This document shows, one piece after another, positions 10,844 to 64,000 of a stretch of DNA of 64,000 bases (positions within the stretch are counted from its first letter, which is position 1; every line of letters starts with the position of its first letter). The stretch comes from a virus. The notes below the pieces were generated by a model. The model did no database searches. It was given only the letters and a program-made list of their open reading frames with translations, and was not told the origin of the DNA. The translations under genes were made by a program, and so were the position numbers. The DNA is taken from positions 1 to 64,000 of IMG/VR virus record IMGVR_UViG_3300042868_006787, one strand, 5' to 3'.

Positions 10844-10850
10844 CCTAGGA

Positions 10851-11519
10851 TTATCCTCTTTTCCTTAAAGTTTCGTCACTCAAGATATTTGTTTCTTTTT
10901 GAAGAACTGTTTGTCTTTCAAGCATAATTGTTGAAATAGTTTCAGATATGGGCTTTGAAATTTTATGCTTAAGCCAGAAAAACATCATTAGTATTTCTGA
11001 GTTATCTTGCAATTTTTTATTTTCTCTCCAGTGCATCTGTTGAGTCCCAGAAAATAGTAAGGCCTGATTGTCTAAAATATTAAATTGTTTGCCTTCAACA
11101 ATTATTCCCCAATCCTCATTTGTTTGCAATTGAACATCAAAAACAAACATCTCGTACGGCCTTGTGTCATAATGTGGAAACAATTTAACTTCATATCCGT
11201 ACTCAGGAGAATATCTAACAACAGAATATTCTGCAACAACCAAATCTTTATTGCATACTTCTGATGCTAAGTTTTGTATTTTTGCAATTATATTATCTGA
11301 AATTTTTATATGATCTAGAACTCCTTGCCCACCCCATTTTTGAACTCTAACCTTTTTTAAAGGAAATTCCCTGGCTGCTTGCAATATAGCCTTTAGTTCT
11401 TTATCAGTAAAAATATTATCTACTAAGATTGGAATAAAATCTTGATCAGACACATAGTCTTGAGATTCTCTCAATTTTTTATACTTTGGAAATTTATCTA
11501 GCAATGGGAAAGTAGTCAT
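10851..11519 (-). CDS. 2OG-Fe(II) oxygenase (paralog group A)
   Basis: LFPHYD...FSGTQQMHWR. Confidence 0.75.
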   Translation of the reverse strand: MTTFPLLDKFPKYKKLRESQDYVSDQDFIPILVDNIFTDKELKAILQAAREFPLKKVRVQKWGGQGVLDHIKISDNIIAKIQNLASEVCNKDLVVAEYSVVRYSPEYGYEVKLFPHYDTRPYEMFVFDVQLQTNEDWGIIVEGKQFNILDNQALLFSGTQQMHWRENKKLQDNSEILMMFFWLKHKISKPISETISTIMLERQTVLQKETNILSDETLRKRG

Positions 11520-48091: not shown

Positions 48092-48691
48092 TTAACGGTT
48101 TTCCCAAAGAGGATTTCCCCAATAGATGTCCTCATACTTTAAACCTGGATAGGGAGACTGTCCAGTTGGAGCATTCCAAAAATCAGATATAAACATTGGT
48201 TTTTTTTCAACAGTAGTAATCTCTCTTGAAAATTCCTCAGTTTCTGGGAAAATTATACAATCTCCAGCAATCAAATTTTTTGCAATTTTATAGTTATTAA
48301 ATTTAAAGATTCCTCCATCATGGCAATCATTCCACTTTATAATTGACCTAAACACATTTTCAGGCCTATCTGCTGAATGACCTGCTGAAATATTTTTTCC
48401 TGGGGCATATCTCATAATATAACTCTTTCCTAAAATAGGTGGGTCATATTTAATTCCAGACATTTGAGAAACGGCTTCCTGTATTGCATTACAATATTTT
48501 TCAAAGATAGAAACAACCTCTCTTGGCATATCTCCATAAGTGGTTATGTCAAAGTTTATTCCTTCTTGGCTAAATAGAGGGTCATGTAATGGGATATGAT
48601 CTTCTTTAGTATTAAATTTAACTGAATCAACAAATTTGCCAATTAGTTCTAAGTTTTCTGCTGTTGCTACATTTATTATTTGATAATTCAT
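48092..48691 (-). CDS. 2OG-Fe(II) oxygenase-fold protein, degenerate
   Basis: WND..DGG.F.F and AGDCIIFP, but GHSAD instead of HxD and REITTV instead of HEVxxV. Confidence 0.55.
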   Translation of the reverse strand: MNYQIINVATAENLELIGKFVDSVKFNTKEDHIPLHDPLFSQEGINFDITTYGDMPREVVSIFEKYCNAIQEAVSQMSGIKYDPPILGKSYIMRYAPGKNISAGHSADRPENVFRSIIKWNDCHDGGIFKFNNYKIAKNLIAGDCIIFPETEEFSREITTVEKKPMFISDFWNAPTGQSPYPGLKYEDIYWGNPLWENR

Positions 48692-50855: not shown

Positions 50856-51551
50856 TTATAATAACACAAAACTATTATCATTATAGGTTTCTATAGGATC
50901 TATATTTTTATTAATAGGAAAAATATCGTATGCAATTGTAATCCTATCCTTTGAAAGATTCCAAGGAGCCATAGCATGTGCGTGGCCTGTTTCTGAAAGA
51001 ATTGCAACATTGTTTTTATTATTAATAATTACATCTTTACCAAAAATTTTATAATATGTTTTAGAAGGCTCTGCTGAAACCGAATAATAGCCATGAAGAA
51101 ATGGGAAGCCTTCTCCTCCATGATCGTGCCAAGGCATTTTTTCTATCATCTCTTCAGTTATCTCAATATCCTCATTTGTACTATTTTTTACACTATATAA
51201 ATTAAACCATCCATGAATAGAAAAGTCTTGATCTTCAAAATTTACACCATAATACTCGCAAGCCTCAATAGTCATAGATCTTATAGATTTTAATAAATTA
51301 ATTAATGCTGGATGTTTAAAATTAAATATATTGTAATACTCGGTTGTCATTGATGGAATTCCATCTTTTTTATCAATAAACATTTCCTTTGGAAATTTAG
51401 TCATTGTATGATCTGTAACCTCATTAATCTTAAAAAATTGCTCGGCATATATTAAGTAATTAACTTTATGCAGAAATGAGTATAAATCTTCTAAGTCATT
51501 ATCTAATTCCCTAGAAAAAAATTTATGCTGTTTTTTCAAATGATTTTTCAT
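50856..51551 (-). CDS. Cupin/2OG-Fe(II) oxygenase-like protein (group B; start likely 51551)
   Basis: GWFN, WHDH, HGYYSV, SETGHAH, RITIAYD; ATGA coupling. Confidence 0.7.
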   Translation of the reverse strand: MKNHLKKQHKFFSRELDNDLEDLYSFLHKVNYLIYAEQFFKINEVTDHTMTKFPKEMFIDKKDGIPSMTTEYYNIFNFKHPALINLLKSIRSMTIEACEYYGVNFEDQDFSIHGWFNLYSVKNSTNEDIEITEEMIEKMPWHDHGGEGFPFLHGYYSVSAEPSKTYYKIFGKDVIINNKNNVAILSETGHAHAMAPWNLSKDRITIAYDIFPINKNIDPIETYNDNSFVLL

Positions 51552-52207
51552 GATAATGGAATCCATTTTCCTGGTTTGCCACCAGACATCATAGCAGATG
51601 GAACTATATCATAGGCAATTGTTATTCTTGGGTTTTTTTGAAACCAATCATCTCTTCCATGTGGGTGACCAGTTTCTGAAATAATTGCTCTATTGTTTTT
51701 ATTTACATTTTCAAAAATTTTATCTTCATTTCTGTCTATTTTATAAAAAGTAGAAGATGGCTCTGCATCTACACAGTAATATCCATGAAATGCTGGTGCG
51801 CCAATTCCATTCATATGATCATGAAAATGATTTGGATACTTTAATGGATTAACTCCCCCATTTTTTCCTTCATTTGGAGTTTCCTGGTCTAAATTGAACC
51901 ATCCGTGAATTAAATATTTTTCTTTATCCATATCTATTTCATAATATTCACAAACATCTTTCATTAATTTTCCAAGAGACTTGTAGAGTTGATAAATGCC
52001 TGGATGAATAAAAGTAAAAATATTATAATGATCAATGCCTAACTTTGTTAAAGATCCCATCCCTTTTCCATGCTTAAGCATTTCTTCTTTTGAAACATTT
52101 AGAATATTTTCATCTAAAATTAAAGATTCCATATCAACTAGATAAGACTTAAGACTATTTAAATCATTATCTAAAACAACATTAAAAAATTTTTGTGGTT
52201 TACTCAT
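51548..52207 (-). CDS. Cupin/2OG-Fe(II) oxygenase-like protein (group B; start likely 52207)
   Basis: GWFN, FHDH, HGYYCV, SETGHPH, RITIAYD; ATGA coupling. Confidence 0.7.
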   Translation of the reverse strand: MSKPQKFFNVVLDNDLNSLKSYLVDMESLILDENILNVSKEEMLKHGKGMGSLTKLGIDHYNIFTFIHPGIYQLYKSLGKLMKDVCEYYEIDMDKEKYLIHGWFNLDQETPNEGKNGGVNPLKYPNHFHDHMNGIGAPAFHGYYCVDAEPSSTFYKIDRNEDKIFENVNKNNRAIISETGHPHGRDDWFQKNPRITIAYDIVPSAMMSGGKPGKWIPLS

Positions 52208-52851
52208 GCCAGTGGAATCCAGTGCTGTTCCCAATTATGCATAATTCCTTTAAAAGGAATAACATCATAGGCAATTGTTATTCTTGGACCTTCCCAGTCC
52301 CAATCAGCCATGGCATGGGGATGGCCAGTTTCAGAAAGAATGGCTCTATTATTTTTATTTATATTTTCAAATTCTTTATCAAATACTTTGTAGTGAGTTG
52401 TTGATGGTTCTGCTTTTACAGAATAATAACCGTGAAACCACGGAGCGCCAGAGCCACCATGTTCGTGCCAATCAAGTTTTCCGGTGTGATTGTAATTAAC
52501 ATTAAACCAACCTTGTACCCAAAAATCCTCTTTTTCAAAATCAAGATCATAATGTTTACAGGCTTCAATAGTCATAGACCTTACAGATCTAAACAATTTA
52601 TGAATTGCTGGATGATAAAATTGAAAAACATTATATTTATTCCATTTGCTTGTAGTTATACTTCCAGAAGAGTCCCAAAGCGTCTTTTCATCTTTATCAT
52701 TTTTTAATATTTCGCCTTTTTTAATACGTTCAGATTGTATAATTAAAAAATTTGATAAATTATCTAGGTCAGAATCTAAAGTTCTTTCAAAAAATTTATG
52801 AGGAACGTTTTTATTTTGACTAGTGCTGTTTAAAGAAATATTTTCGTACAT
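52204..52851 (-). CDS. Cupin/2OG-Fe(II) oxygenase-like protein (group B)
   Basis: GWFN, WHEH, HGYYSV, SETGHPH, RITIAYD; TGATATACT at 52873-52881. Confidence 0.7.
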   Translation of the reverse strand: MYENISLNSTSQNKNVPHKFFERTLDSDLDNLSNFLIIQSERIKKGEILKNDKDEKTLWDSSGSITTSKWNKYNVFQFYHPAIHKLFRSVRSMTIEACKHYDLDFEKEDFWVQGWFNVNYNHTGKLDWHEHGGSGAPWFHGYYSVKAEPSTTHYKVFDKEFENINKNNRAILSETGHPHAMADWDWEGPRITIAYDVIPFKGIMHNWEQHWIPLA

Positions 52852-52899
52852 TTAGTCTCCATTTCTTTATATAGTATATCATAAAGATAAATGAGATTT

Positions 52900-54180
52900 T
52901 TACTTATTATGTACTAGATAATCTCCAGCAATAAACCAGTCTTGTGGCTCACAGTTAAACTGATAGACTACGGACTCTGAAATATCAGTTGTTATAGATA
53001 CAATTTCTATTTCTGAAAAAGATCCATCTTGTTCAACTTTTATTAAAATATCTCCTTCTTCTATTTCAGAAGCATTTTTAACAACATAGGATGACCCCAC
53101 TTTAGCAAAAAATGGCTGTGTCATTGAATATTTGCTATGGGATTCTCCATTAAAATATACAACTGAATACTTTGTTGATGGAACAATATTTACAACAGTT
53201 GTTGAAACTATTCCATTTGAAGTTAATGCTGAACTAGAAAATTCTGAGTAGTCATAATCTCCAGCATCCCCTTCAGTTGACAATTCTGACAAACCTACTG
53301 AGTATACAGCATCTCCAACCTGAATATCTTTTGCTGCAACCAAACCAGTTGGCGTTCTAATTAGTGTGTCTGCTTCAATACAAGCACGTCCTCCTGGTGA
53401 AAAACCAAACGGTGTAAATCCAAATGGTGTAAATCCAAATGCGCCAAATGGTGTAAATCCAAATGCGCCAAATGGTGTAAATCCAAATGGTGTAAATCCA
53501 AATGCGCCAAATGGTGTAAATGAAAATGCATCAAACGGTACAAAACCAAATGCACCGAATGGTGCAAAACCAAATGGTGTAAATGAGAATGATGTTACTG
53601 ATCCTGAAGCAGCAGATGTGCCTGAATTACCGTTAGCGTTAGTTGCATAAACGGTGTATGTTTGTGCTGTTCCCGCTTCTTGCCCTACAGAAACAGATGT
53701 TCCCGCCTGTGTTGCTCCCTTGCCATCGCTAGAAGCCCAAGTGTAAGAAGTAATAGCACTTCCACCAGTTGCTGGTGCTGACCAAGAAACGTCGTCGTTT
53801 GCCGCTCCACCTTGTGCAGTTGCGCTAGGTGCTGATGGAGTTGCAGGAACTGTTGTTGCAGTTACTGAGCCGCTTGCTGCACTTGCTGCCGATGTTCCAT
53901 AAGTATTAGTTGCAGTTACTGTAAATGTATAAGCAGTATCACTTGATAAACCTGTAACCCGAATTGGAGAACTCGAGCCAGAAGCGGTGTAACTTCCTGG
54001 GGTTGATAAAACTGTATAAGAGGTTGCAGCATTTCTTGGGTCTGCAGTGAAGGAAACATCTACAGCACCATCATTATATGGACGAGCAGTTCCAACATTG
54101 GATGCAGAATCAATTGTTGGTGCATATGGCATTAAAAAGTCATTAGCACCTTGCGATTTACGACCACTTCTTTTACTCAT
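52900..54180 (-). CDS. FN3-FN3-(FGFTP/FGA)n-Hint domain protein
   Basis: Two FN3 domains (VTGLSSDTAYTFTVTATN; VSWSAPATGGSAITSY), 65-aa Phe repeat, Hint from C267 (CIEADTLI) to LVHNK-stop. Confidence 0.85.
   Translation of the reverse strand: MSKRSGRKSQGANDFLMPYAPTIDSASNVGTARPYNDGAVDVSFTADPRNAATSYTVLSTPGSYTASGSSSPIRVTGLSSDTAYTFTVTATNTYGTSAASAASGSVTATTVPATPSAPSATAQGGAANDDVSWSAPATGGSAITSYTWASSDGKGATQAGTSVSVGQEAGTAQTYTVYATNANGNSGTSAASGSVTSFSFTPFGFAPFGAFGFVPFDAFSFTPFGAFGFTPFGFTPFGAFGFTPFGAFGFTPFGFTPFGFSPGGRACIEADTLIRTPTGLVAAKDIQVGDAVYSVGLSELSTEGDAGDYDYSEFSSSALTSNGIVSTTVVNIVPSTKYSVVYFNGESHSKYSMTQPFFAKVGSSYVVKNASEIEEGDILIKVEQDGSFSEIEIVSITTDISESVVYQFNCEPQDWFIAGDYLVHNK
53395..53589 (-). repeat. Coding tandem repeat: ten F[GS]FxP pentapeptides plus five F[GD]A tripeptides
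   Basis: 15-nt (tttggatttacacca) and 9-nt (tttggcgca) units read directly. Confidence 0.95.
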
Positions 54181-54224
54181 AAACTCTTCTCCCCTTATTT
54201 ATTAATTTTTTTCCTGTCTAACAA

Positions 54225-55964
54225 TTACGCTGAAAGATCTCCAAAGACTACCCAAGAGTTTTCTGCTCTCTTAAATAATGTTGCAGATGACCAACGTGTA
54301 CGAAGTTTAAGTCCAGGAGTAGCATTTACTGTTACTCCAGCATCGCCAGCAATTGTAACCTGTCCAGTGTTAGTCTGTAGAATATCCAATGTGGTTCCTA
54401 CTGGATAAGCAACTGCGCTATTTAGTGGGATGGTGATTGTTGTTCCTGATTCTGAACTTACTTCAATTAATGAGTCTCTTTCTGATTCTGCTGAAAGAGT
54501 ATAAGAAGCAGTCTTTGAAATAATTGGTGTTCGTGAAGGAACGCCTTCTTTTGTTTGTGTTCCGTCTGGGAATACTACTCCAGATGAGGGGGTTACTGTT
54601 GTAGCCTCAAGTGCAGCAACTTTAATGTCATCAAGTGACCCTTCTGTAAAATCAATGGTAGTTGTTGGCTCTGTTGTTACGCCTTTAAACAGTTTCCACT
54701 TAGCATCAGATGCGTCTCTTACTAATCCTGAGTGTTTTGCTGTTCCATCATTGTATGCAACTACAAGGCCAAGGTCAATCGTATTTGCTGGATTTTCGTG
54801 AGCAAGTTGAAGAATATTGTCTTCAACTGTAATACTCGTTGATGATACTGCAAAGGTATTTCCATTTACTGTTAAATTTCCATCTACAGTAAGAGCGTCA
54901 ACTGTTGTTGTTCCTGTAAATGTTGGTCCTGCAAGATTAGCCTTAAGATCAAGGGCTGTCTGTGTAGCACTTGATACTGGCTTATTTGCATCTGATGTAT
55001 TGTCAACATCTGAAAGCCCTACCATAGTCTTTGTAACTGCTCCTTCTGCAATTTTTGCAGTAGTTACTGCTGCATTAGCAAGTTTTTCTGTTGTAACAGA
55101 AAGGCCACCAAGTTCATTAGTTCCAACTGAGTCATCACTTAAATGTGATTGTGAAATTGCATTGTCTGCAATCTTAGGTCCAGTTACTGCTGCATTTGCA
55201 ATTTTTGCTGTTGTGACAGAATCAGAAACTGGAGTTCTTTCATCTGAAAGACGTGAATCGTTTGTGTAAACAAGGTTTAGTGTATTTGAAATACCATGTA
55301 CGCTTGTATTTCCTGATTCATGGTCTGCTAATGAATTAGAAACTGCAACAAGATCTTCGTCATAGACTAGACTAAATACGTTTGAGATACCATGGACATT
55401 TGAGGTTGCTGATTCATGACCTGCTAATGAATTAGAAACTACATCAAGATCTTCATCATAGACTAAGGTAAAAGCGTTTATAATACCATGGACATTTGAG
55501 GTTGCGTTAGCATGATTTTCAACTGAAGTTTTGACTGCATAATGATCTTGATCAAGTACTGACAAGGCATTATTTGTGCTTGCAATAGAGTTGCTAAGGC
55601 TAGAATTAGTATTACTTTGCTGTGTTAAAACATTTTGGATGTTTGCAAGATTTTGAGTAATCGAATTTGCAAATCCTGCGTCATCTCCAATTGCTGCTGC
55701 AATCTCATTAAGAGTATTTAGTGTGTTTGGTGCTGCGTCGATAACCGCATCAATTGCATTATTTATAGCAGTAGTAACCTCTGATGAATCAAATACAATG
55801 GAGGCATCTACGAAATATTGTAGGCTTGCAAATGCAGTACTTCCATTACCTACTTTAAACTTGTTGGTATCTGTTTCAAAGCCAATTTCTCCTGCGCCCA
55901 GTACTGGATTTGCTGCAGCCCATTGTGCTGCTGTACCTCTGCGCTGTTGCATTCTAGTTGCCAT
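54225..55964 (-). CDS. Tail fibre protein with Mtd_N-like N-terminal domain
   Basis: QRRGTAAQW...NPVLGAGEIGFETDT.KFKVGNG, APNTLNTLNEIA, VTTAKIA repeats, C-terminal WVVFGDL. Confidence 0.8.
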   Translation of the reverse strand: MATRMQQRRGTAAQWAAANPVLGAGEIGFETDTNKFKVGNGSTAFASLQYFVDASIVFDSSEVTTAINNAIDAVIDAAPNTLNTLNEIAAAIGDDAGFANSITQNLANIQNVLTQQSNTNSSLSNSIASTNNALSVLDQDHYAVKTSVENHANATSNVHGIINAFTLVYDEDLDVVSNSLAGHESATSNVHGISNVFSLVYDEDLVAVSNSLADHESGNTSVHGISNTLNLVYTNDSRLSDERTPVSDSVTTAKIANAAVTGPKIADNAISQSHLSDDSVGTNELGGLSVTTEKLANAAVTTAKIAEGAVTKTMVGLSDVDNTSDANKPVSSATQTALDLKANLAGPTFTGTTTVDALTVDGNLTVNGNTFAVSSTSITVEDNILQLAHENPANTIDLGLVVAYNDGTAKHSGLVRDASDAKWKLFKGVTTEPTTTIDFTEGSLDDIKVAALEATTVTPSSGVVFPDGTQTKEGVPSRTPIISKTASYTLSAESERDSLIEVSSESGTTITIPLNSAVAYPVGTTLDILQTNTGQVTIAGDAGVTVNATPGLKLRTRWSSATLFKRAENSWVVFGDLSA

Positions 55965-56011
55965 TTTTTATTTCCTCCTGGGGGTTATGGGTATAATTAT
56001 AACAGATTATT

Positions 56012-56467
56012 TTAGTTAAAATTATCTGTTGCTGTTCCGCCATCATACGTTAATGTCCAAGATGATGTTGATGGTAATCCTGCATCTTGTGGTGTTCCTT
56101 GTGGTGCATTATAAAATCCACTACTTATAAATTGGCTGACTATAAAACCAGTTCCATCTATTGCTGTATCGTGAATGTGATCTGGTAGTGTTTGTGTATC
56201 ATCAATTGTTGCAATTGTAATCCAAGAACCATTGTAATAAACGTTGACTCGAGATGTTAACGTATCAAACCATAGTTGTCCATTTGTTGGAGAAACGGGG
56301 GCAGTTGATGATGCTGGCATTGCGCCAGTTACTGAATCAACATATGCTTTAGTGGTTGCATGGGTGCTTTCAGTTGGAGTTCCAACTACTACAGCATTTC
56401 CAAAACTACCGCCAGCAGTAACAATAAGGCCATTTTTGATCTTAAAGTCTTTTTCTACTGTTGCCAT
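56012..56467 (-). CDS. Small fibre-associated protein
   Basis: HATTKAYVD, P.SPTNGQLWFD; N-terminus shared with 56497..57972. Confidence 0.65.
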   Translation of the reverse strand: MATVEKDFKIKNGLIVTAGGSFGNAVVVGTPTESTHATTKAYVDSVTGAMPASSTAPVSPTNGQLWFDTLTSRVNVYYNGSWITIATIDDTQTLPDHIHDTAIDGTGFIVSQFISSGFYNAPQGTPQDAGLPSTSSWTLTYDGGTATDNFN

Positions 56468-56496
56468 TTATCTCCCCCGTTTTTAGTTATTTTTTA

Positions 56497-57972
56497 TTAC
56501 GCTACTAGTGTTCCGACAACTGTTACTGTTGAACTGTTATTAGCAGTTGTTACATTGAGTCGGACATCTGCTCCTGAAATACTTGCTGAAATTGTTGATG
56601 CTGAACCATTGGTTCCAACAATTGCGTATTCAGTGATTGCAATGTTATCTGAAGTATCAAGTGTCAAAAGGACCTTTGAAATTTCAGTGTGTGCTCCGTA
56701 AGCAACCTTTACAAGGTATTCTGCTGAACGATATTCAGCCTTTGCAAAAGAATGTGCTACTTGAATTCCTGCTGTTGGTGCTGATAGTTGTGCTGCAACC
56801 TGCTTAGCAACTGAGGATAACTCAACTGCTACAAAGTTTGGAACAACTGCTTCAAGAGCAGATACTGCACGAGCATTTGAGAAGTAAAGGTTTGAAGTTC
56901 CTTCTACTAAATCATCAGTATCAGAATCTCCTACACCGTTTTCAGCGGTAATAGTAAGTCCTGCGCCTGAGCCTGTTATTGTAATGTTTGAAAGTGTTGC
57001 ACCAGTTAAAAGATCTGCTGCTGCTGACTTTGAACGAGCATTTGAGAAATAAAGGTTACTTGCTCCTTCTTCAATATCGTCTGTGTCAAGTGCTGCGATT
57101 GCATTTGCTGCGGTTCCTGCTGCGTCATATGATGCTGCAGTTGCTGCTTGTGCACGAGCATTTGAGAAGTAAAGATTAGAAGCACCTTCTGAAACATCAT
57201 CTGTGTCAAGGCTAGTTACAGAAATTGTATTTCCTGTAATATCAATGTTTGACCCTGCAGTTAAAATGTTTTGCTTTAATGCAACTGAGTTAGCAAGTGT
57301 TACAGCAAAGTTTGCGTCATCACCAATTGCGTTTGCTAATTCATTAAGAGTATTAAGCAAATCTGGTGCTGAATCAACAATTGCTGCTACAGCGTTGGCT
57401 GCTGCTTCATCTGCATAATCTTGTGCATCTGATAATGCATTTGCTGCTGCGCCTGCAAGATCGTATGATCCAGCAAGTGCTGCTTGGGCACGTGCATTTG
57501 TAAAGTAAAGGTTTGTTGTACCTTCTGTTAGGTCGTCAGTATCAGAATCTGCTACACCGTTTTCTGCAGAGATAGTAAGTCCTGAACCTGATCCTGTAAT
57601 TGTAATGTTTGTTAGAGTTGCACCAGTTAAAAGATCTGCTGTTGCAGACTTTGAACGTGCATTTGTAAAGTAAAGGTTTGAAGTTCCTTCTGATAAATCA
57701 TCAGTATCAAAGTTTGAAATGTCTGATACTTGACCAGTTACATCTCCAACAAGATCTGCTGTAATTACGTTTGCAGCAAAGTTTTTGTTGCCATCACGAA
57801 GTACAATAGCATTTGCTACTGATGCTGAGTTTGCTACTCCACCAATAAGTCCCTGTATGTAAGTTGTGTCTCCTGCTGATTTTGTAAGAACGTCATTTCC
57901 GTTAACGGTTGCTGTCGCACCTTCAACGATTAGACCATATTTAACTTTAAAATCTTTTGTTACTGTTGCCAT
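56497..57972 (-). CDS. Fibre protein with five DTDDxxEGxxNLYFxNAR repeats
   Basis: Repeats read directly; APDLLNTLNELA; C-terminal YRSAEYLV...ITEYAIV domain. Confidence 0.75.
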   Translation of the reverse strand: MATVTKDFKVKYGLIVEGATATVNGNDVLTKSAGDTTYIQGLIGGVANSASVANAIVLRDGNKNFAANVITADLVGDVTGQVSDISNFDTDDLSEGTSNLYFTNARSKSATADLLTGATLTNITITGSGSGLTISAENGVADSDTDDLTEGTTNLYFTNARAQAALAGSYDLAGAAANALSDAQDYADEAAANAVAAIVDSAPDLLNTLNELANAIGDDANFAVTLANSVALKQNILTAGSNIDITGNTISVTSLDTDDVSEGASNLYFSNARAQAATAASYDAAGTAANAIAALDTDDIEEGASNLYFSNARSKSAAADLLTGATLSNITITGSGAGLTITAENGVGDSDTDDLVEGTSNLYFSNARAVSALEAVVPNFVAVELSSVAKQVAAQLSAPTAGIQVAHSFAKAEYRSAEYLVKVAYGAHTEISKVLLTLDTSDNIAITEYAIVGTNGSASTISASISGADVRLNVTTANNSSTVTVVGTLVA

Positions 57973-57987
57973 TTTGTATCTCCTAGG

Positions 57988-58434
57988 TTATGCCTTAAGT
58001 CCCATACGTGCGTAACGTACGGTGATCGGGCGGATTGATATGTCTGGGTCTACTGTTAAATAAACAGTGTTTCCACTTCTAGAGACGCTTATGGTGCCAA
58101 TATTCCCATCATTGTCTATCGTGCCGTACTCGCTTACGGAAATGTCGCTTCCATCTACAAGTATTGTCATCTCTGTGGCATAAAATTTATTATCGCCAGC
58201 AGAAGTCTTTGAAATTGCTATCAGATATTTAACCATTCGCCATTCAGTTGCACTGAAACTGTCTATTGTGGTTAAATTTTCAATACCATTAATAGTATTA
58301 TCATTGTTACCCGCAGACCCTAAACTTGTTGCTTGGGATGCAGTAGTATCAATAAGATTTATGTAATCGGCCTGTGTAGGGCGGTCACCTGTTTGGAACA
58401 AATTCTTTACATTTGGGATTGATATGATTGCCAT
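57988..58434 (-). CDS. Virion protein paralogous to the fibre C-terminal domain
   Basis: FQTGDRPTQADY; WRMVKYLI...VSEYGTI; leaderless TGTTATAAT at 58441-58449. Confidence 0.65.
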   Translation of the reverse strand: MAIISIPNVKNLFQTGDRPTQADYINLIDTTASQATSLGSAGNNDNTINGIENLTTIDSFSATEWRMVKYLIAISKTSAGDNKFYATEMTILVDGSDISVSEYGTIDNDGNIGTISVSRSGNTVYLTVDPDISIRPITVRYARMGLKA

Positions 58435-58457
58435 GGCATTATTATAACATTATTTTA

Positions 58458-59021
58458 TTACAGTTTTTCAATCCAAACTTGATACCCTTTTTGTAAAATT
58501 TTAATTCTAAGTTCGTTGTTTTTTAAAAACCTATCAATACCATTTAAAGGTTTTAAGTCAACATTTCGACTTGGGTGCTCCCATCCGTAATCATCAAACG
58601 CAAGGATTCCTCCTGATTTTAAAAGCGGGAATGCTAAAATTGCATCATTGTAAACACCTTCTGCTGAATGATCTCCATCTATATATATAAAGTCAAACTC
58701 TGCATCAGAAGAAGATAGGTATTCTTTGCTATCTTTTTTGATCTTTATAGAATTCGGGAACTGGCTCATTTTTTCATCATACATTGACTCAATTTCATCC
58801 CAGTCAAATTCTGTGTGAATTTTTTCTTTTGAGCCTTTCCAAGTATCTATGTCTGTAAGGCTTGATGTTTTGTCTGTTAATATATTTTTTAACAGCCATT
58901 CAGAGCCATGACCAAGGTATACGCCAATTTGTAAAAAATTAACATTTGGAAGGTCTTTATACTTGTTTAAAAATTTTTCAAATATTTGAATGTTGCTAGA
59001 AAACCAGTTTGGGTATTTCAT
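58458..59021 (-). CDS. Class I SAM-dependent methyltransferase (Methyltransf_24-like; start 59021)
   Basis: FLQIGVYLG, IDTW, FDFIYIDGDHS, LKSGGILAFDDY; GGAG before ATG 59021. Confidence 0.85.
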   Translation of the reverse strand: MKYPNWFSSNIQIFEKFLNKYKDLPNVNFLQIGVYLGHGSEWLLKNILTDKTSSLTDIDTWKGSKEKIHTEFDWDEIESMYDEKMSQFPNSIKIKKDSKEYLSSSDAEFDFIYIDGDHSAEGVYNDAILAFPLLKSGGILAFDDYGWEHPSRNVDLKPLNGIDRFLKNNELRIKILQKGYQVWIEKL

Positions 59022-59745
59022 GGTTTCTCCAATAGTCCAAGGTTTGTTCTTTTGATGTTGTGTGAATAGAGAACTTGCCAGTTTCTTCTGCGGTCTTATC
59101 AAACTCCAAATTAATTGAAGAGCCATAATCCATTGTGTAAGTAAAAAGTGGAATAGATAAGGTTTTGCAACCTTCGTATATCAAAATATCTGCTAATGCT
59201 GCTCGTGAACTTGGCAAAACATATTTTCCATCAATAAAATATTTCTTTAATAAGGCTTCTGCCCTATTTCTTTTAATTAAATAGCATGCTGCAGACCAGT
59301 CTCTTTTTTCTTTCATATGTAAGGATGGATTGACCCTATAGTTATGAATAATGCAAAGTTGTAACATGTCGTATGGTTTTTTTATTGATTCTACAAAATT
59401 AGAAAATTCAAAATTCCAAAAATCTACAGTCTCTAAACTTAAATCGTCTTCAGTAATAATTGCATATTCAGAATCTGAAGTCTCTAGCCAATGTTTGATT
59501 GTTTCAAGATGCGAGATAGTTGCCCCTAATTCATTTTTTGCCAACTGAAGTTTATCTTTTTCAAAAACAATTTTATCAAAATCAAAAGTGTCACCATCAT
59601 AGGCTGTAATAATTTTATAATCTTTTATTTCATACTTTTCAAAATGATTTTTTATATAGTCTAGCCTGTCTGTCTTAGACTCAAGATTAATCACATATAT
59701 TGGGGAGAACCCCTTTAATTTATTTAAACCAGTATGTTCCAGCAT
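58996..59745 (-). CDS. Glycosyltransferase family 25-like
   Basis: YVINLESKTDR, ELGATISHL, IITEDD, SAACYLI. Confidence 0.85.
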   Translation of the reverse strand: MLEHTGLNKLKGFSPIYVINLESKTDRLDYIKNHFEKYEIKDYKIITAYDGDTFDFDKIVFEKDKLQLAKNELGATISHLETIKHWLETSDSEYAIITEDDLSLETVDFWNFEFSNFVESIKKPYDMLQLCIIHNYRVNPSLHMKEKRDWSAACYLIKRNRAEALLKKYFIDGKYVLPSSRAALADILIYEGCKTLSIPLFTYTMDYGSSINLEFDKTAEETGKFSIHTTSKEQTLDYWRNHEIPKLVF

Positions 59746-60433
59746 GGGACACCCTCACGTATGGCGCAAGATAAATTTTTCCACCACTTTCTTTCCATAG
59801 TTTACAAAATTGATAATCTTCAGATAGCAGTCTTTCGCTTTCGTCATCAATTGTTGTTTGCCAAAAATCATATATTGGGTCTCCAAAAACAATGCTACCA
59901 ATCTGTGGTTGATCGCACCTATATTGTTTAATGTCTTTTTTAATTGTTTCAAAAACATTCCTGGATATTAGCATTAAGCCAGTGCCCATGTAATCAACCT
60001 CTGCTATGGTATTTGGATTTTCTTTTAACATTTTTCTTTGTTCTTTGTTCATATTTACATTAAATATTGCAGTGTGCTCATCTAAGTTTTCTTTACCATC
60101 TAGAACGGCCTTTTTAACTCTTGCCCAATTAATGGCCTTCATTGGTACTGCTGCGCCAATAAGGTCTACATTTTCATCTATCATTCTTACGACAGCCTGT
60201 GCGTCAAACCCTTGATCCGCATCTATAAATAAAAGATAATCGCTCATACTTCTTAAAAACATTTCTGTCAAAGTATTTCTTGCTCTAGTAATTAAAGATT
60301 CATTAGAAAGATCAATAAAATTAAGTTGGTGCCCTGAATTAGAAACTGCCTGAGCCAATTGTAAAACACTTTTCATAAAAGCACCACTACAGACACCACC
60401 ATACATTGGTGTGGCTAACGTAATATGAGCCAT
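59720..60433 (-). CDS. GT-A fold (GT2-like) glycosyltransferase
   Basis: ESLITRARN, LLFIDAD, GTGLMLI, LSEDYQFC. Confidence 0.8.
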   Translation of the reverse strand: MAHITLATPMYGGVCSGAFMKSVLQLAQAVSNSGHQLNFIDLSNESLITRARNTLTEMFLRSMSDYLLFIDADQGFDAQAVVRMIDENVDLIGAAVPMKAINWARVKKAVLDGKENLDEHTAIFNVNMNKEQRKMLKENPNTIAEVDYMGTGLMLISRNVFETIKKDIKQYRCDQPQIGSIVFGDPIYDFWQTTIDDESERLLSEDYQFCKLWKESGGKIYLAPYVRVSHAGTYWFK

Positions 60434-60444
60434 AATTCTCCTAT

Positions 60445-60669
60445 CTATAAAATGTAGTTACTGTATCCAATTACTTGCAGTGGAATTGGAGGGGGGTTAG
60501 TAGAACTATACCCCTCAATCCCAATGTTAATAAACTTTATGCGAAACGGTAAAACATCATTAATTTTTACAACTCTTGTTTCTGGAACAATCTTTGTAAT
60601 TGAATAATTTTCTAAAGTTATACTTTTTGTTTTATTGGCGCCCTTGTTGGACAGGACTGCTTTTGCCAT
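60445..60669 (-). CDS. Small hypothetical virion-region protein
   Basis: 74 aa, TAATG coupling. Confidence 0.6.
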   Translation of the reverse strand: MAKAVLSNKGANKTKSITLENYSITKIVPETRVVKINDVLPFRIKFINIGIEGYSSTNPPPIPLQVIGYSNYIL

Positions 60670-61079
60670 TAATCTGTTACGTCTTCTAGGATAACCATAC
60701 TACCCTGGGCAACTGTCCAGACCTGAAGATTACCAGCAGAAGAAAGTTGTATGTCGAAGATGTCTCCTGTTTGAAGAGATACTGATTCTGATGCCTCTAG
60801 AGAAACTGTAAATTCGCCATCGCCATCATCTGCATCATGAATTGGTGTTAATGCCATAATTGTAGTTGCATCATCTGTAATGACACCTTTATTTTGTGCA
60901 AGAGTTGGACGTTTAATTTTCATTGTAATTGTCCAATCTGGAATATTTAATGGCTCTTTGGCGTCATCGGTTACGTAAACACGAAACGCAGATGTGTCTC
61001 CACGAACTACTGTCCAAGTTACTGTTGGAGGTTTGTTCCCAACTTCATATTGACCGCTACTGCTTCTTGTTGTTGCCAT
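60669..61079 (-). CDS. BppU-like baseplate/fibre adaptor domain protein
   Basis: VVRGDT, PLNIPDW, FDIQL, TVAQG; leaderless TGTTATAAT at 61086-61094. Confidence 0.55.
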   Translation of the reverse strand: MATTRSSSGQYEVGNKPPTVTWTVVRGDTSAFRVYVTDDAKEPLNIPDWTITMKIKRPTLAQNKGVITDDATTIMALTPIHDADDGDGEFTVSLEASESVSLQTGDIFDIQLSSAGNLQVWTVAQGSMVILEDVTD

Positions 61080-61095
61080 GATTTAATTATAACAC

Positions 61096-61626
61096 TTAAA
61101 GTCCGTTTTTAACAGCACCCCAGGTGGCATTTCCTCCCTTAATTGGCGAAACTAATATTTTTCCACTTGTTGCATGTGAATATGAAACAACACCAATAAC
61201 ACCAGAGCCATTTGTTGGTCGGGCATTGACTAGCCCACCAGAAGCCCCTATATATAACTTATCTCCATTAGAATATGTAGAAGTATTAATGTCATCTAAA
61301 ACTCCAACCGTTACTACAACACCTTCTTGTCCATCTAATATTTGAGCCTTGACCAAACCAACACATGGGAATGTATTAATATCATCAGACTCACATTTAT
61401 CGATAGTTGCTCTGCCACTAGAGTATCCAGTTATGTATACAGGAGTTCCTTTTATTAATGTTGCCCCGCTTATATTTTTTACATCAAGAGATAAATAAGG
61501 GACTTGTAGGGCAGTTAATATATCATTTACCTTTTCTGCCATTTCTTGCATGTCAGAATGAACGTTTACAGGATCATCTGCTAACGGATATGGTATTAAT
61601 TGCGGATTTGTTGAACCTGATGCCAT
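61096..61626 (-). CDS. Putative virion structural protein
   Basis: IPYP..DDPVNVHSDMQ.MAEKV N-terminus; KGTPVYI, GDKLYI...GGL. Confidence 0.55.
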   Translation of the reverse strand: MASGSTNPQLIPYPLADDPVNVHSDMQEMAEKVNDILTALQVPYLSLDVKNISGATLIKGTPVYITGYSSGRATIDKCESDDINTFPCVGLVKAQILDGQEGVVVTVGVLDDINTSTYSNGDKLYIGASGGLVNARPTNGSGVIGVVSYSHATSGKILVSPIKGGNATWGAVKNGL

Positions 61627-61660
61627 AATTTTATTATTATACCACTAAAAGCATTGGTAG

Positions 61661-61690
61661 TTGACAAAATTGATTTGGGGTTGATATAAT
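61661..61690 (+). promoter_or_regulatory. Consensus sigma70/sigmaA promoter TTGACA-N18-TATAAT with extended TG
   Basis: TTGACA 61661-61666, TATAAT 61685-61690. Confidence 0.88.
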
Positions 61691-61736
61691 TAAGGTATTG
61701 ACACCGAAAGGTGTTATTTTACTTATAGGAGGATCT

Positions 61737-62267
61737 ATGAATAAAGAAGATTTTATTACTGGAATTGCCGGAAGTTTTATTGCTGCCGTAGTTGGTTTAA
61801 CTGGGGCTAACGCAAATCTAGAAGAAATTGTACCTATAGAAACTGCAAATGAAAAAGTTGAGTCGGGGACTCCGTCCGCAATAAAAGCAAAATATTCTAA
61901 CGTTACAACCCTGTCAGATAAAGAGTTAAAGGTTTTATTGAAAGCGGTTGGCTTTGACGGACAAGGTTTAAAAATGGCATGGGCAGTTGCTAAAAAAGAA
62001 AGCAATGGCAGGCCTCTGGCCTTTAACGGCAACAAGGACACTGGCGACCACTCGTTTGGAATATTTCAGATTAATATGAATGGAAGATTAATGGAGGATA
62101 GACTAGAAAAATTTAATCTTAACTCGGTCTCTGATCTTTTTAATCCAGTAACCAATGCAGAGATTGCTTTCTACATGACAAAAGGCGGAAAAGATTGGTC
62201 ATCTTGGACTTATCTTGAGGGACAAAGAATTAAAGAATTTTTAACTAAATATCCGACAATTAATTAA
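61737..62267 (+). CDS. Secreted lysozyme-like lytic transglycosylase (start 61737)
   Basis: AGGAGG RBS; signal-like N-terminus; AVAKKES (catalytic Glu), SFGIFQIN, LFNPVTNA, DWSSW. Confidence 0.85.
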   Translation: MNKEDFITGIAGSFIAAVVGLTGANANLEEIVPIETANEKVESGTPSAIKAKYSNVTTLSDKELKVLLKAVGFDGQGLKMAWAVAKKESNGRPLAFNGNKDTGDHSFGIFQINMNGRLMEDRLEKFNLNSVSDLFNPVTNAEIAFYMTKGGKDWSSWTYLEGQRIKEFLTKYPTIN

Positions 62268-62887
62268 AAATAGGCAATAGCCGTATATTTTGTTCCAGAA
62301 GTAACTCTAAGTTCTCTGTGTCTATAGTTTTTGTTTGCTGGATATATCAAAACATCTCCTGCAGATAAACTTATAATTTCGTTGCCAACTCTATTTTCAA
62401 ATTGAAATTCACCACCAGCATAGTTGTCGTTTAATGCTATAACAATTGTATAAAAATGTTTTTGTCCATCTCTATCTAAATCATCGTGAAAATCAGAACT
62501 TTCAATTTGTTCGTAAATTGTAAAATTTTTTATTTTTTTTATTGACAGTTCGTATTCTTTTATATAATCATACAGAAAGGGAAAGGCATAGTCAATTAAT
62601 TCAGATTTTAAATTACTTTTTTTAATAGATTGCCCTAAATTGTTTGCCACTAAGTTAATTTCTGAAATTACTAAATTAGGAACCAATAAAAAATTATCTT
62701 CGCTTGGCAAGTTAATAACTTTTTGATTGACAATATGATCAGTATCTCTAATATTTTTTAAAGAAGAAATGCTCCATACATTTTTTGTTGATGGCTCATT
62801 GTTTACTGTCTGTAACAATTCTATAAAATTTTTATTTTTATTCTCAGAATAAAGGATAACAAAGTTATCTAAAAAAGTTTTATTCAT
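62264..62887 (-). CDS. Prolyl-4-hydroxylase-like 2OG-Fe(II) oxygenase
   Basis: FHDD, LNDNYAGGEFQF, AGDVLIYPA, HRELRVTSGTKY. Confidence 0.8.
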   Translation of the reverse strand: MNKTFLDNFVILYSENKNKNFIELLQTVNNEPSTKNVWSISSLKNIRDTDHIVNQKVINLPSEDNFLLVPNLVISEINLVANNLGQSIKKSNLKSELIDYAFPFLYDYIKEYELSIKKIKNFTIYEQIESSDFHDDLDRDGQKHFYTIVIALNDNYAGGEFQFENRVGNEIISLSAGDVLIYPANKNYRHRELRVTSGTKYTAIAYF

Positions 62888-62889
62888 AA

Positions 62890-63501
62890 TTAATTTTCTT
62901 CCATTATTAAATGACTAAGACATATAAAGTTTTCGGTTAAAAAAAAGTAATTATCTAAAAGTACTAAAGAAACTGAAATTTGGTTAGAAATTTTTGATTC
63001 AAAATCTTCAATTTTTGTTTTTAAAAATGGTTGATCTGGGTTAACAAAAATATTGTCATCTAAAGTTTCTACATTTAGATTAAAAGGCTTAGAATCTAAA
63101 GATTGAATAAAATAGTTTTCTTCATTTTCACTAGATATCATTTTACCAATAATACTATCTGCATTTTTTAAATACATGTGATCTACCTCTAAATCTTTCT
63201 GTATTAATATTGGATCTATTCCTGACAATATATTGTTGTTTAAACTTTTAAAATTTCCAAAATTTTTATGAACAAAAACAGAATATACTGTTGCAGAACA
63301 CAAAACAGTATCTCCTGTTTGAATAAAAAATCCTTCTCTTTTGTTATTTAATTTTATGTATCGATGATAAAATTCTGAATGAGTTAAAATTTCTGAATCT
63401 TTTGTTTTAATAGATAAAATTTTATCACCAAACTGTAAATCTTCAATGTTTTTTAAAGTTTTATCCTCAAGATATACTTTTGTTCCAATTGGGAATCCCA
63501 T
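62890..63501 (-). CDS. Stand-alone degenerate Hint-like protein
   Basis: MGFPIGTKVYLEDKTLKNIEDLQFGDKILS matches Hint block A with Cys1 replaced by Gly; no terminal HN. Confidence 0.6.
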   Translation of the reverse strand: MGFPIGTKVYLEDKTLKNIEDLQFGDKILSIKTKDSEILTHSEFYHRYIKLNNKREGFFIQTGDTVLCSATVYSVFVHKNFGNFKSLNNNILSGIDPILIQKDLEVDHMYLKNADSIIGKMISSENEENYFIQSLDSKPFNLNVETLDDNIFVNPDQPFLKTKIEDFESKISNQISVSLVLLDNYFFLTENFICLSHLIMEEN

Positions 63502-63506
63502 AAGGC

Positions 63507-64000
63507 CTACTTATTATGCACTAAATAATTACCCGCAATAAACCAATCTGCTGGCTCACAACTAAATTGATAAACAGTTGTGTCTTTTATTAATGGAGTT
63601 ATAGTTTCAATTAAAACTTCTGTAAAACTTCCATCTTCATTTACTTGTATCAAATAATCTCCGACCTGTAGAGCCCCTGTTGGAACTACTTGATAAAAGT
63701 CATTTGATTTTGTAAACATTGGCTGACTAATTGAAAATAATTTTTCTAAATCATCATTAAAATATATTACTTCGTTTTTTGCAAAAGGCTCTATAGCAAC
63801 AATGCGTGTGGTTGTTTTGTTTAATGGTGTAAGAGTTTTTGAAATCATTCCTACATAATCAAAATCATATTGCCCTGTAATATCGCTTTGTGGAATTTCT
63901 AATAAATTAACGCTGTCAATTTCATCATCAACTTTTAGGTCTTTGGCTGCAATTGGGCCATTAGGTGTGCTAATTAAAGTGTTTTCATCTATGCAGTTTG
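63507..64000 (-). CDS. C-terminal Hint domain of a protein starting beyond the window (ORF track start is internal)
   Basis: Frame open to the edge: NCIDENTLISTPNGPIAAKDLKVDDEI...VYQFSCEPADWFIAGNYLVHNK-stop; Cys codon at 63993-63995. Confidence 0.85.
   Translation of the reverse strand, partial: NCIDENTLISTPNGPIAAKDLKVDDEIDSVNLLEIPQSDITGQYDFDYVGMISKTLTPLNKTTTRIVAIEPFAKNEVIYFNDDLEKLFSISQPMFTKSNDFYQVVPTGALQVGDYLIQVNEDGSFTEVLIETITPLIKDTTVYQFSCEPADWFIAGNYLVHNK

Follow-up and report, generated by a model that had tools for sequence, protein, structure and literature searches.

Hint domains are known from three settings: inteins, the BIL domains found in surface proteins of bacteria, and the processing domain of Hedgehog proteins. 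In inteins, a histidine in block B normally assists the first step of the reaction. Enzymes of the prolyl 4-hydroxylase (P4H) type are marked by an H-x-D...H...K pattern; the context recognized by the collagen enzymes is X-Pro-Gly, and the P4H of the chlorovirus PBCV-1 reportedly acts on the virus's own proline-rich repeats. According to the passages of PMC7765530 that summarize Amitai et al. (2003) and Dassa et al. (2004), A-type BIL domains have a C-terminal His-Asn, cleave themselves at either end, and sit in variable regions of non-conserved proteins. Phage oxygenases can also occur in arrays, the relevant passages of Iyer et al. 2010 (PMC2938197) describing ten tandem dioxygenases in the cyanophage Syn9. 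Here, a phage locus that can be compared with these systems is described, in a window of 64,000 nucleotides from the genome of an uncultured lake phage. All of the genes named in a first-pass annotation of this window lie on the minus strand, at the positions it gave.

The central gene of the locus (52900..54180) encodes a protein of 426 residues, in which two FN3 domains (Pfam fn3, E 4.8e-7) are followed by a repeat tract and a C-terminal domain. The tract, residues 196-266 (53383..53595), includes 25 Phe, 10 Pro and 14 Gly in its 71 residues. It consists of exactly ten F-x-F-x-P units, with FGA or FDA spacers, and then GGRA, whose final residue, Ala266, directly precedes Cys267; ten Pro-terminated, Phe-rich repeats had been proposed at this place, immediately before the scissile Cys, and the count is correct. 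At the DNA level the tract is a tandem repeat, with periods of 15, 24, 39, and 63 nt. The C-terminal domain extends from Cys267 to Asn425, plus the final Lys426 (52903..53382), so that the protein ends in His-Asn-Lys. Contigs from the RNA libraries of three lake runs match the fiber genes and this gene exactly (53123-54277), spanning the Cys267 codon, which is no proof of transcription; contigs from two RNA-library runs contain an in-frame variant of the tract that is 63 nt shorter.

A second paralog is cut by the end of the window. Its C-terminal 163 residues are encoded at 63507..64000, on the minus strand, and the gene continues to genome position 64481; the whole gene (L003, 1454-2428) encodes 324 residues. 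In this protein the head is a PASTA domain (E 6.5e-6), followed by a repeat of the same kind, with the same periods of 15, 24, 39, and 63 nt, and by a Cys...His-Asn-Lys domain that is 41% identical to that of the main copy.

To identify these C-terminal domains, single-sequence searches of Pfam are not sufficient, because the matches (Hint_2, E 0.049; Intein_splicing, E 0.067 and 0.045) are all below the cut-offs. A profile built from 37 family members was searched against the chains of solved structures in the PDB. The best match is the TFIIB intein (5o9j; E 4.6e-7, 33.2 bits), followed by the BIL domain 2lwy (E 2.7e-6, 30.7 bits) and the RadA intein (4e2u; E 4.1e-6), and 13 intein or BIL chains are matched at E <= 0.0015. 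These matches support the assignment of the C-terminal domains of both paralogs as real Hint/intein-type domains, in line with what had been read from the Cys...HNK-stop endings of the two copies.

The domain has much in common with the A-type BIL domains. In addition to the sequence similarity to 2lwy, it shares with them a Cys at position 1, a length of about 160 residues with no homing endonuclease, and a location in a variable, non-conserved protein rather than at a conserved enzyme site. Both copies have the C-terminal His-Asn with no nucleophile at +1. In the search against solved chains, the profile scores for 2lwy and the TFIIB intein are close. The phage domain differs from A-type BIL domains in that it lies at the extreme C-terminal end of the protein, followed by just one Lys, in that it is preceded by an aromatic-proline repeat and is encoded by a phage beside fiber genes, and in that both copies have Gln in place of the block-B His; moreover, in a sister subfamily the domain starts with Ser and ends with Asp, and Ser at +1 is accompanied by a conserved tail of some 40 residues. 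With the mini-inteins that are its best profile matches it shares recognizable blocks A, B, F, and G in the family alignment. Unlike them, it is not inserted in a conserved site of a host protein, has no Cys, Ser, or Thr at +1 in the window copies, and has been inherited together with its host gene across diverged phages, in both paralogs. As in Hedgehog proteins, a Hint domain closes a protein of two parts, the first of which would be the functional product. The phage domain, however, has no sterol- or adduct-recognition region, a single residue following Asn425, and it retains the terminal His-Asn that Hedgehog-type cleavage does without.

The reaction residues are kept across 65 distinct family sequences. 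All but one have a nucleophile at position 1 (35 with Cys and 29 with Ser; the exception has Ala), and in 61/65 the domain ends in Asn (31) or Asp (30). The two ends covary: 31 of the 35 Cys1 forms end in Asn, and all 29 Ser1 forms end in Asp. The first position of block B is Ser or Thr in 62/65, and the last is His in 40, Glu in 15, Gln in 9, and Tyr in 1. At +1, both window copies have Lys as the last residue of the protein, and thus neither the nucleophile nor the C-extein of a canonical intein, whereas relatives have Ser (25/65) or Thr (1/65) there, in most cases followed by a conserved stretch of about 40 residues. In both window copies block B reads S-x-x-Q in place of T-x-x-H. Lacking the usual His, the domain of this sub-lineage may cleave slowly or not at all. 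Indeed, the domain might be catalytically dead here and persist as a folded terminal knob, as could be argued from the Gln and Glu forms and from the small Cys-rich C-terminal modules that occupy the same place in four loci (L014, L064, L080, and L083). We consider this unlikely. The C...H-N-K pattern, found in 19/65 family sequences, is strictly kept in precisely the Gln forms (9/9), and a dead domain is hard to reconcile with the retention of both chemical ends. The covariation of Cys1 with Asn and of Ser1 with Asp points to conserved self-processing, despite the Gln in both window copies.

The family comprises at least 611 proteins (8000 scored), and was confirmed in 276 viral contigs out of 294 candidate viral stretches; wherever a name was on record, the proteins were unnamed. 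Among 108 ORFs for repeat proteins, 17 lack the Hint domain, in 16 cases not through a frameshift. A large number of the Hint-less ORFs either end right after the repeat plus an Arg or Lys or have the small Cys-rich end mentioned above. The genes are also consistently linked to fibers. Directly upstream of the main copy is a fiber gene (54225..55964, minus strand) with an N-terminal Mtd_N domain (E 1.7e-15) and matches to tail/fiber PHROGs, whose C-terminal domain is also found in the fiber upstream of the second copy. A fiber with this shared domain directly precedes the repeat gene in 100 of 100 evaluable cases, a count that leaves out 7 cases at contig edges and 1 frameshift piece. A second fiber-like protein of the cassette (56497..57972, minus strand), which matches structural and tail-fiber PHROG families, is kept in 68 of 80 loci. 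The paralogs do bracket the fiber genes, as had been noted, and it is more accurate to say that each directly follows a fiber gene of its own. Since all 80 loci belong to a single broad lineage of phages, the locus counts are not independent.

Our favored reading, which we hold at somewhat better than even, is that these are fiber-linked repeat proteins whose BIL-type Hint domain acts once, on its own chain, to free the head and tail. In a siphovirus-like lake phage, both genes would encode accessory proteins of the fibers. Each protein would begin with a putative carbohydrate- or wall-binding head, made up of two FN3 domains in the main copy and of a PASTA domain in the second; then comes the hydrophobic tail, built of aromatic-proline pentapeptides, and last the Hint domain, of the A-type BIL kind. 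Cys267 would attack the carbonyl of Ala266 in an N-S acyl shift, the thioester would be resolved by water or another nucleophile, and cyclization of Asn425 would free the single terminal Lys. Since the Hint domain would thus remove itself, and Asn425 would free the Lys, the predicted mature protein is the head plus the repeat tail; that is, what the Hint-less relatives encode directly. We infer the cleavage itself, as well as the presence of the protein in the virion, the latter from gene position.

Alternatively, the thioester could be used for transfer, joining the tail covalently to a virion protein, a lipid, or an amine of the host envelope. The gene always follows a fiber gene, and Hedgehog Hint thioesters are passed to cholesterol, as stated in the corresponding passages of PMC7765530. 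We nevertheless think transfer very unlikely, given that only one residue follows the Hint domain in the window copies, with no adduct-recognition region, and that the Hint-less relatives make a free tail directly.

The locus also encodes several candidate enzymes, and the first-pass annotation had assembled these, together with the Hint proteins, into a single tailoring pathway. Downstream of the main copy are three cupin-like oxygenase paralogs on the minus strand: A (52204..52851), B (51548..52234; 43% identical to A), and C (50856..51566; 45% identical to A). As anticipated, the three align well, with an H-x-H, a distal His, and an R-I-T-I-A-Y motif common to all, in an HxH...H...R pattern. 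None of the three has a match in Pfam (0/3). In the extended family, 17 of 63 sequences match PF13759 (2OG-FeII_Oxy_5) at E <= 0.01, the best at 1.1e-4. Four residues, H128, H130, H178, and R189, are nearly invariant, each being retained by at least 90% of the 63. The family has 409 representatives, with no solved relative found, and a minority of the island paralogs have lost the conserved metal-binding residues.

These genes belong to an island that follows the main copy and varies between loci, with 1-12 genes. Across 22 architectures, a cupin-like (distantly PF13759-like) or DUF6065 gene is present just downstream of the repeat gene in 66 of 66 bounded islands. The families that make up the island share no relationship; among them are DUF6065, an SDR, and unknowns. 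Like the Syn9 dioxygenases, the islands are fast-changing arrays of several unrelated DSBH oxygenase families; they differ from these in their fixed place directly after a repeat-tailed fiber-locus protein, and in that no halogenases were seen.

Between the two paralogs is an accessory block (58458..60433, minus strand) that consists of a GT-A-like gene (59720-60433), a GT25 gene (58996-59745), and a methyltransferase gene (58458-59126). The latter two assignments are borne out by Pfam (Glyco_transf_25, E 1.1e-12, 48.7 bits against a cut-off of 24; Methyltransf_24, E 2.6e-17), and for GT25 also by phrog_2835 (E 1.5e-55). The designation of the first gene as GT2 is not. No GT2 family of Pfam and no chain in the PDB matches it, and what it does match is limited to phrog_34859, annotated 'glycosyltransferase' (E 5e-6), and, below the cut-off, Anp1 (E 0.0077). 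The block is found in only 9 of the 40 loci that span its site, and its genes are lineage-specific extras, outside any conserved unit.

Next to the second paralog is a gene for a 2OG-Fe(II) oxygenase of the PF13640 type (62264..62887, minus strand). Its score is 29.9 bits against a cut-off of 27; it also matches phrog_61 (E 4.4e-15), and its nearest solved sequences are PKHD-type hydroxylases (E 0.002). In the translation, H-D-D is followed by a distal His, and ten residues beyond that by a Lys. By the PF13640 gathering score and the H-x-D...H...K pattern, the product is a putative P4H-like oxygenase, as had been suggested. Between the two genes lies that of a stand-alone protein of 203 residues (62890..63501, minus strand), previously read as a degenerate Hint. 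Its N-terminal third is Hint-like (Pfam Hint, E 0.0018, below the cut-off), and with the family HMM scores of 15-24.5 bits are obtained for 4 of 6 orthologues. The window's own copy, however, falls below the filter on that HMM; Gly replaces Cys1, the terminal His-Asn is absent, and hhalign assigns a probability of 1.9%. The reading as a degenerate Hint is tentative. Genes of this type also sit after Hint-less PASTA-repeat genes, in loci L042 and L048.

In its complete form, the proposed pathway has oxygenases hydroxylating the Pro (or Phe) of the repeat, glycosyltransferases glycosylating it, and the methyltransferase methylating it, with the Hint domain releasing or attaching the tailored tail. 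It is consistent with the constant presence of oxygenase-like neighbors, and with the fact that the island stays with the repeat gene where the RNR gene has moved upstream (L037, L047, L049, and L052) and is retained by the Hint-less and Cys-rich-ended variants. The most Pro-rich tails (33 and 47 Pro; L080 and L083) occur with 7 P4H-like genes each, and one library protein (P0199) fuses a P4H-like half with a cupin-like half. There is also a precedent in print, in that the pertinent passages of Iyer et al. 2010 (PMC2938197) propose co-encoded collagen-like or tail-collar proteins as substrates of 2OG dioxygenases and sulfotransferases. Against it are the scarcity of the GT-A/GT25/methyltransferase block and the makeup of the second cassette, which has no adjoining enzyme in 19 of 29 loci and an adjoining P4H-like gene in only 7 of 29. 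Distant cupin-like relatives also occur in cyanomyoviruses, adjoining RNR or endonuclease genes, and the repeat-Hint protein itself matches nothing in the phage collection. The families of the island have no kinship among themselves, L080 and L083 represent a single lineage, and conserved synteny inside one lineage is weak evidence of coupling. We thus regard the complete pathway as quite unlikely. What stands of the tailoring locus is the Hint domain, its conserved residues, the adjacency of repeat and Cys, and the oxygenase-like neighbors; the inclusion of the glycosyltransferase/methyltransferase block and of a second-cassette enzyme is not supported. The comparison with RiPPs also fails, as this is a 426-residue protein with folded FN3 domains, and no RiPP recognition, protease, or export family was found among the scanned neighbors. 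Self-removal of the Hint domain is thus well supported, and a single pathway of hydroxylation, glycosylation, and methylation is not.

A narrower version would confine action on the tail to the Fe(II)/2OG-type oxygenases (cupin-like, P4H-like, or both), with the glycosyltransferases and methyltransferase serving something else. The same adjacency and co-variation argue for this version, as does the nearly invariant H-x-H...H...R of the cupin-like family. The repeat Pro, however, sits in T-P-F-G, unlike the context of collagen P4H. A collagen-like protein is encoded in the same module. It is an alternative substrate, and a more classical one for the P4H-like enzyme than the repeat tail. In addition, the tandem dioxygenases of Syn9 are read as small-molecule pathways in the passages of PMC2938197 that treat them. 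As in PBCV-1, a P4H-type enzyme and Pro-containing repeat proteins are found in one virus, but the repeat of the phage abounds in Phe and has a single Pro in every five residues, and the relation of enzyme to substrate is here putative. The narrower version is possible, though rather doubtful. Taken by itself, hydroxylation of the tail by the oxygenase-like genes of the island has a chance well short of even, and nothing that was seen requires it. It seems to us improbable that the two kinds of oxygenase, cupin-like and P4H-like, and the Hint domain form one tailoring unit, widespread in phages, in which the aromatic-proline tail is first hydroxylated and the Hint domain afterwards cuts itself off or passes the tail on by way of its thioester. 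If true, the virion would bear an appendage, sticky or shielding, that is chemically modified, and that would be the viral equivalent of adhesive proteins rich in hydroxyproline or DOPA.

The repeat-Hint family is large and uncharacterized, as far as our searches reach. A Hint domain that caps a hydrophobic repeat tail on proteins of a phage fiber locus would be a new biological setting for Hint chemistry. The family is also a natural series for its study: Cys1/Asn forms can be set against Ser1/Asp forms, block B carries His, Gln, or Glu, the domain is followed either by one residue or by a C-extein of about 40, and Hint-less and Cys-rich replacements occur. Lastly, the constant oxygenase neighborhood offers a specific test, on a defined candidate substrate, of the role of many phage 2OG oxygenases.

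Every gene in the finding lies on the minus strand of the 82,053-base IMG/VR record, which has an estimated completeness of 76% and of which the window comprises bases 1-64000. The DNA runs that contain the window sequence are lake-water metagenomes. In order of transcription, and with the stretch L003 covering the genome beyond the window, the region begins with a collagen-like protein and four small structural-looking proteins. These are followed by a 206-aa fibre, a PASTA/repeat/Hint protein (63507 to genome position 64481; L003 1454-2428), a 203-aa protein (62890-63501), a P4H-like PF13640 oxygenase (62264-62887), an SLT_3 lysozyme-like gene on the opposite strand, a cement-like protein, two small genes, and a set comprising a GT-A-like gene, GT25 and Methyltransf_24. 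Next come a fibre cassette of four genes, the last of which encodes a 579-aa fibre whose N-terminus is Mtd_N, then the FN3/repeat/Hint protein (52900-54180), three cupin-like paralogs (A, 52204-52851; B, 51548-52234; C, 50856-51566), a class II RNR, a 199-aa gene, a 1196-aa protein, and the portal and prohead protease. Further along the genome is a 2407-aa ORF of tape-measure size, and it is by this size alone that the phage is called siphovirus-like. The observation made in the first-pass annotation, namely that two Hint-ended paralogs bracket the fibre genes among candidate modifying enzymes, is confirmed.

The FN3/repeat/Hint protein has 426 residues and an fn3 match (Pfam E 4.8e-7). Its tract of 71 residues contains exactly ten F-x-F-x-P units, with 25 Phe, 10 Pro and 14 Gly, and is followed by GGRA and then Cys267. 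The ten repeats stand directly before the presumptive scissile bond, Ala266/Cys267, as had been described. The genome contains the second paralog in full; it has 324 residues and a PASTA match at E 6.5e-6. Both proteins end in H-N-K-stop, and at the DNA level both tracts show tandem periods of 15, 24, 39 and 63 nt.

In single-sequence scans, neither Pfam nor PHROG identified the Hint domain or the cupin-like genes, and the Pfam scores of the Hint parts (E 0.045-0.067) were all below the cut-offs. Because single-sequence Pfam was insufficient, relatives were gathered for a profile, A2, which was built from 37 Hint parts and compared with solved structures. The profile matched 5o9j (E 4.6e-7), the Clostridium BIL domain 2lwy (E 2.7e-6) and 4e2u (E 4.1e-6), and in all 13 chains at E <= 0.0015, comprising solved inteins and BIL domains. 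Since these are the structures matched, the terminal domains are, on sequence grounds, demonstrably homologous to Hint domains.

We then took a census of the reaction residues in 65 distinct Hint-bearing sequences, including the two from the window and excluding copies cut by contig ends. Position 1 is Cys in 35, Ser in 29 and Ala in 1. The first position of block B is Ser or Thr in 62 of 65, and its last position is His (40), Glu (15), Gln (9) or Tyr (1). The penultimate residue is His in 47 of 65, and the final domain residue is Asn in 31, Asp in 30 and another residue in 4. The two ends covary, i.e., Asn is terminal in 31 of the 35 Cys1 forms, and Asp in all 29 Ser1 forms. Conservation of both ends argues for chemistry, and together with the A2 profile these residues support the Hint part of the earlier interpretation. 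The window type, C...Q...H-N-K, is found in nine sequences; in these the block-B His is absent and only a Lys follows the Asn. The block-B Gln of the window copies calls for caution about the chemistry in the present phage.

In contrast to canonical inteins, the window's domains have neither a +1 nucleophile nor a conserved insertion site, and in contrast to Hedgehog proteins they have no adduct region. The best fit is the description of A-type BIL domains in the review PMC7765530, which gives as their features a conserved His-Asn at the C-terminus, cleavage at either end, and a location in hypervariable regions of non-conserved bacterial proteins. Alignment A2 also contains a Ser1 sister subfamily (L013, L018, L020, L025, L037, L046, L049-L058 and others), in which block B retains its His and the domain closes with His-Asp followed by Ser at +1. 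Its tail is about 40 residues long and carries a helix-like L-x-x-L-Y-Q-Q-W-K motif. In 21 Ser1 forms the pattern S...H...H-D-S is found along with this conserved tail; compared with a splicing intein, these have all features, but with Asp instead of Asn. The sister subfamily looks able to splice properly, which would join the repeat to the tail.

In the search for relatives, 276 of 294 candidate stretches in viral contigs proved to encode one, and 80 loci were retained. A protein search yielded 611 proteins among 8000 scored candidates. They come in two forms, one with FN3 (about 410 aa) and one with PASTA (about 300 aa), and a single contig often encodes both. Among 50,697 phage records, from which near-identical records may be excluded, neither the locus (megablast) nor the 426-aa protein (tblastn) had a match, and a protein-cluster look-up returned 'hypothetical protein' as the sole name. 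A scan of genome contigs gave 10 loci, in only two of which, L084 and L085, more than the FN3 or repeat part was covered. Both are on short contigs that were binned into Chitinophagaceae and Ferruginibacter MAGs, a weak hint at the host. In forms of 914-944 aa (L013 2967-5801; L018 3075-5819; L020; L025; L038; L079), a very large N-terminal region replaces FN3 or PASTA before the repeat and a Ser-type Hint domain.

The Hint domain is present in 91 of the 108 repeat-protein ORFs of the 80 loci and absent in 17. One of the latter, L045, results from a frameshift that leaves the Hint part in the next frame, whereas the remaining 16 are genuine ends. In L041, L042, L048, L053, L069, L070 and L081 the repeat is followed by a few residues to an Arg or Lys end, and other short ends are found in L036 and in the partial ORF of L067. 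In the rest, a Cys-rich module replaces the Hint domain (L014 1328-1789; L064, twice, 2811-3842 and 9989-10942; L080 2409-3326; L083 2970-3983). These modules are short, with 6-9 Cys among some 20-30 residues, and adjoin the repeat. The terminal module is evidently exchangeable. A head plus repeat tail is thus encoded directly by relatives, which fits a Hint domain that removes itself.

The 203-aa gene, described earlier as a degenerate Hint, follows a Hint-less PASTA-repeat gene in L042 and L048. The likeness of its product to Hint is weak, with a Pfam Hint match at E 0.0018 over residues 3-45 and an hhalign probability of 1.9%. On the family HMM, four of six orthologues scored 15.0-24.5 bits over the first 60-95 positions, and the copies of the window and L007 were removed by the bias filter. 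The protein, which has Gly at position 1 and lacks the His-Asn, probably derives from a Hint domain.

To examine the neighbourhood, ORFs of the 80 loci were labelled by BLASTP against the window proteins. A fibre gene lies directly upstream of the repeat gene in all 100 evaluable cases (82 + 18), seven further cases being at contig edges and one a frameshift piece. These fibres carry the C-terminal domain that the 579-aa and 206-aa fibres have in common. The main copy is followed downstream by a variable island, which in 66 loci is bounded by a conserved gene and has 1 to 12 genes in 22 architectures, each with a cupin-like or DUF6065 gene. The cupin-like family occurs in 52 of the 66 loci, DUF6065 in 40, P4H-like/PF13640-related genes in 16 and an SDR (adh_short E 4.5e-39) in 13; three unknown families and a gene with a weak likeness to sulfotransferases (E 0.0086) occur as well. 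Of the 22 members of cluster 1, 14 match DUF6065 (best E 5.1e-30). No relationship among the seven largest island clusters was found by hhalign (top probability 40.7%), and the profiles of DUF6065-like cluster 1 (A4) and of cluster 4 (A5) had no credible solved relative. The 199-aa gene after RNR (48092-48691) has no Pfam match and falls into BLASTP cluster 2 with island P4H-like genes; it may be another oxygenase. Where RNR is upstream instead (e.g., L037, L047, L049, L052), the island still comes after the repeat gene, and it is kept beside the Hint-less and Cys-rich variants. A pairing of the Tyr-type repeat with islands without the cupin-like family (5 architectures) was discounted, as the cases are few and the lineages related. 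A promoter/terminator scan performed no better than shuffles, and in the 48 nt that separate the Hint gene from the first cupin-like gene it picked up nothing resembling a terminator; no operon conclusion is based on it.

The three cupin-like paralogs share 43-45% identity to the first member. An HMM search of the full library gave 409 representatives at E <= 0.001; of these, 212 reach <= 1e-10 and 38 reach <= 1e-30. Among 63 aligned members, H128, H130, H178 and R189 are each present in at least 90%, and 17 match PF13759 (best E 1.1e-4); profiles A1 and A3 had no credible solved relative. In alignment A1, some long-island paralogs have lost all His motifs (L058:11937-12497, L052:11958-12515, L037:11977-12534, L054:10627-11187, L018:12012-12578) and may be inactive copies. 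One library protein, P0199 (369 aa), is a fusion in which the first half matches PF13640 and the other half is cupin-like, which suggests that the two families work together. P0200, a distant cupin-like protein, had no relative in viral contigs. By tblastn, distant relatives were found in cyanomyoviruses, in 21 records with the window protein (E 3e-3) and in 81 with P0200 (best E 5e-7). In ACG-2014b the relative lies among small genes between endonuclease genes, and in S-CAM1 after the RNR small subunit. The phage collection that holds these cyanomyoviruses gave no match to the repeat-Hint protein; therefore, the cupin-like family is not tied everywhere to the repeat protein.

To look for signs of expression, we used six lake metatranscriptome runs, in which 33-57% of the sampled words of 50856-56000 are present. 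In three of them, contigs without differing letters fall within 53123-58417. These exact contigs cover the fibre genes and also the main copy, where they span the codon for Cys267 (e.g., X19 record 9, 53123-53410 and 53474-54277; X20 record 18, 54248-55774). The contigs are supportive, short of proof, because DNA can occur in RNA libraries; their zero cover over the cupin-like, GT/MT, P4H-like and second Hint genes carries no weight. Within the tract, at 53410-53474, contigs of two RNA-library runs lack 63 nt (21 codons), and those of the DNA run break at 53440-53492. The skip suggests either a shorter allele, i.e., repeat-number variation, or assembly collapse of the repeat.

The first-pass annotation had also proposed that the repeat is hydroxylated, glycosylated and methylated, by analogy with collagen or RiPPs. 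The glycosylation and methylation steps are unsupported: among 40 loci spanning the GT site, 25 have nothing there, nine have GT-A/GT25/MT, four GT-A alone, and two a P4H-like gene with GT-A. The RiPP analogy likewise found no support. A link between oxygenases and the repeat tail is possible. The second cassettes count against a single pathway: in 19 of the 29 that could be evaluated, the repeat gene is followed at once by the next conserved gene, and in seven there is a P4H-like gene. As the loci all belong to one lineage and many are almost identical, these counts and those for the GT site overstate independence. Two loci, L080 and L083, whose tails are nearly all Phe and Pro (33 and 47 Pro), each carry seven P4H-like genes; these loci, and the persistence of the island, keep the tailoring idea alive. 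A collagen G-X-Y stretch occurs in the 240-aa protein of the same structural module (L003 4561-5283, genome 66614-67336; Pfam Collagen E 6.5e-7), which is an alternative, classical candidate substrate of the P4H-like enzyme. In Iyer et al. 2010 (PMC2938197), ten tandem dioxygenases of cyanophage Syn9 are interpreted as small-molecule pathways. Separately, for collagen-like or tail-collar proteins encoded together with dioxygenases and sulfotransferases, the authors propose hydroxylation followed by sulfation; the present genome also has a collagen-like protein.

The literature searched, with subscription journals mostly outside its scope, yielded no description of a terminal Hint domain in a protein from a phage fibre locus. 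Autoprocessing by BIL/Hint domains is known; what would be new is its setting, in fibre-linked repeat proteins of phages.
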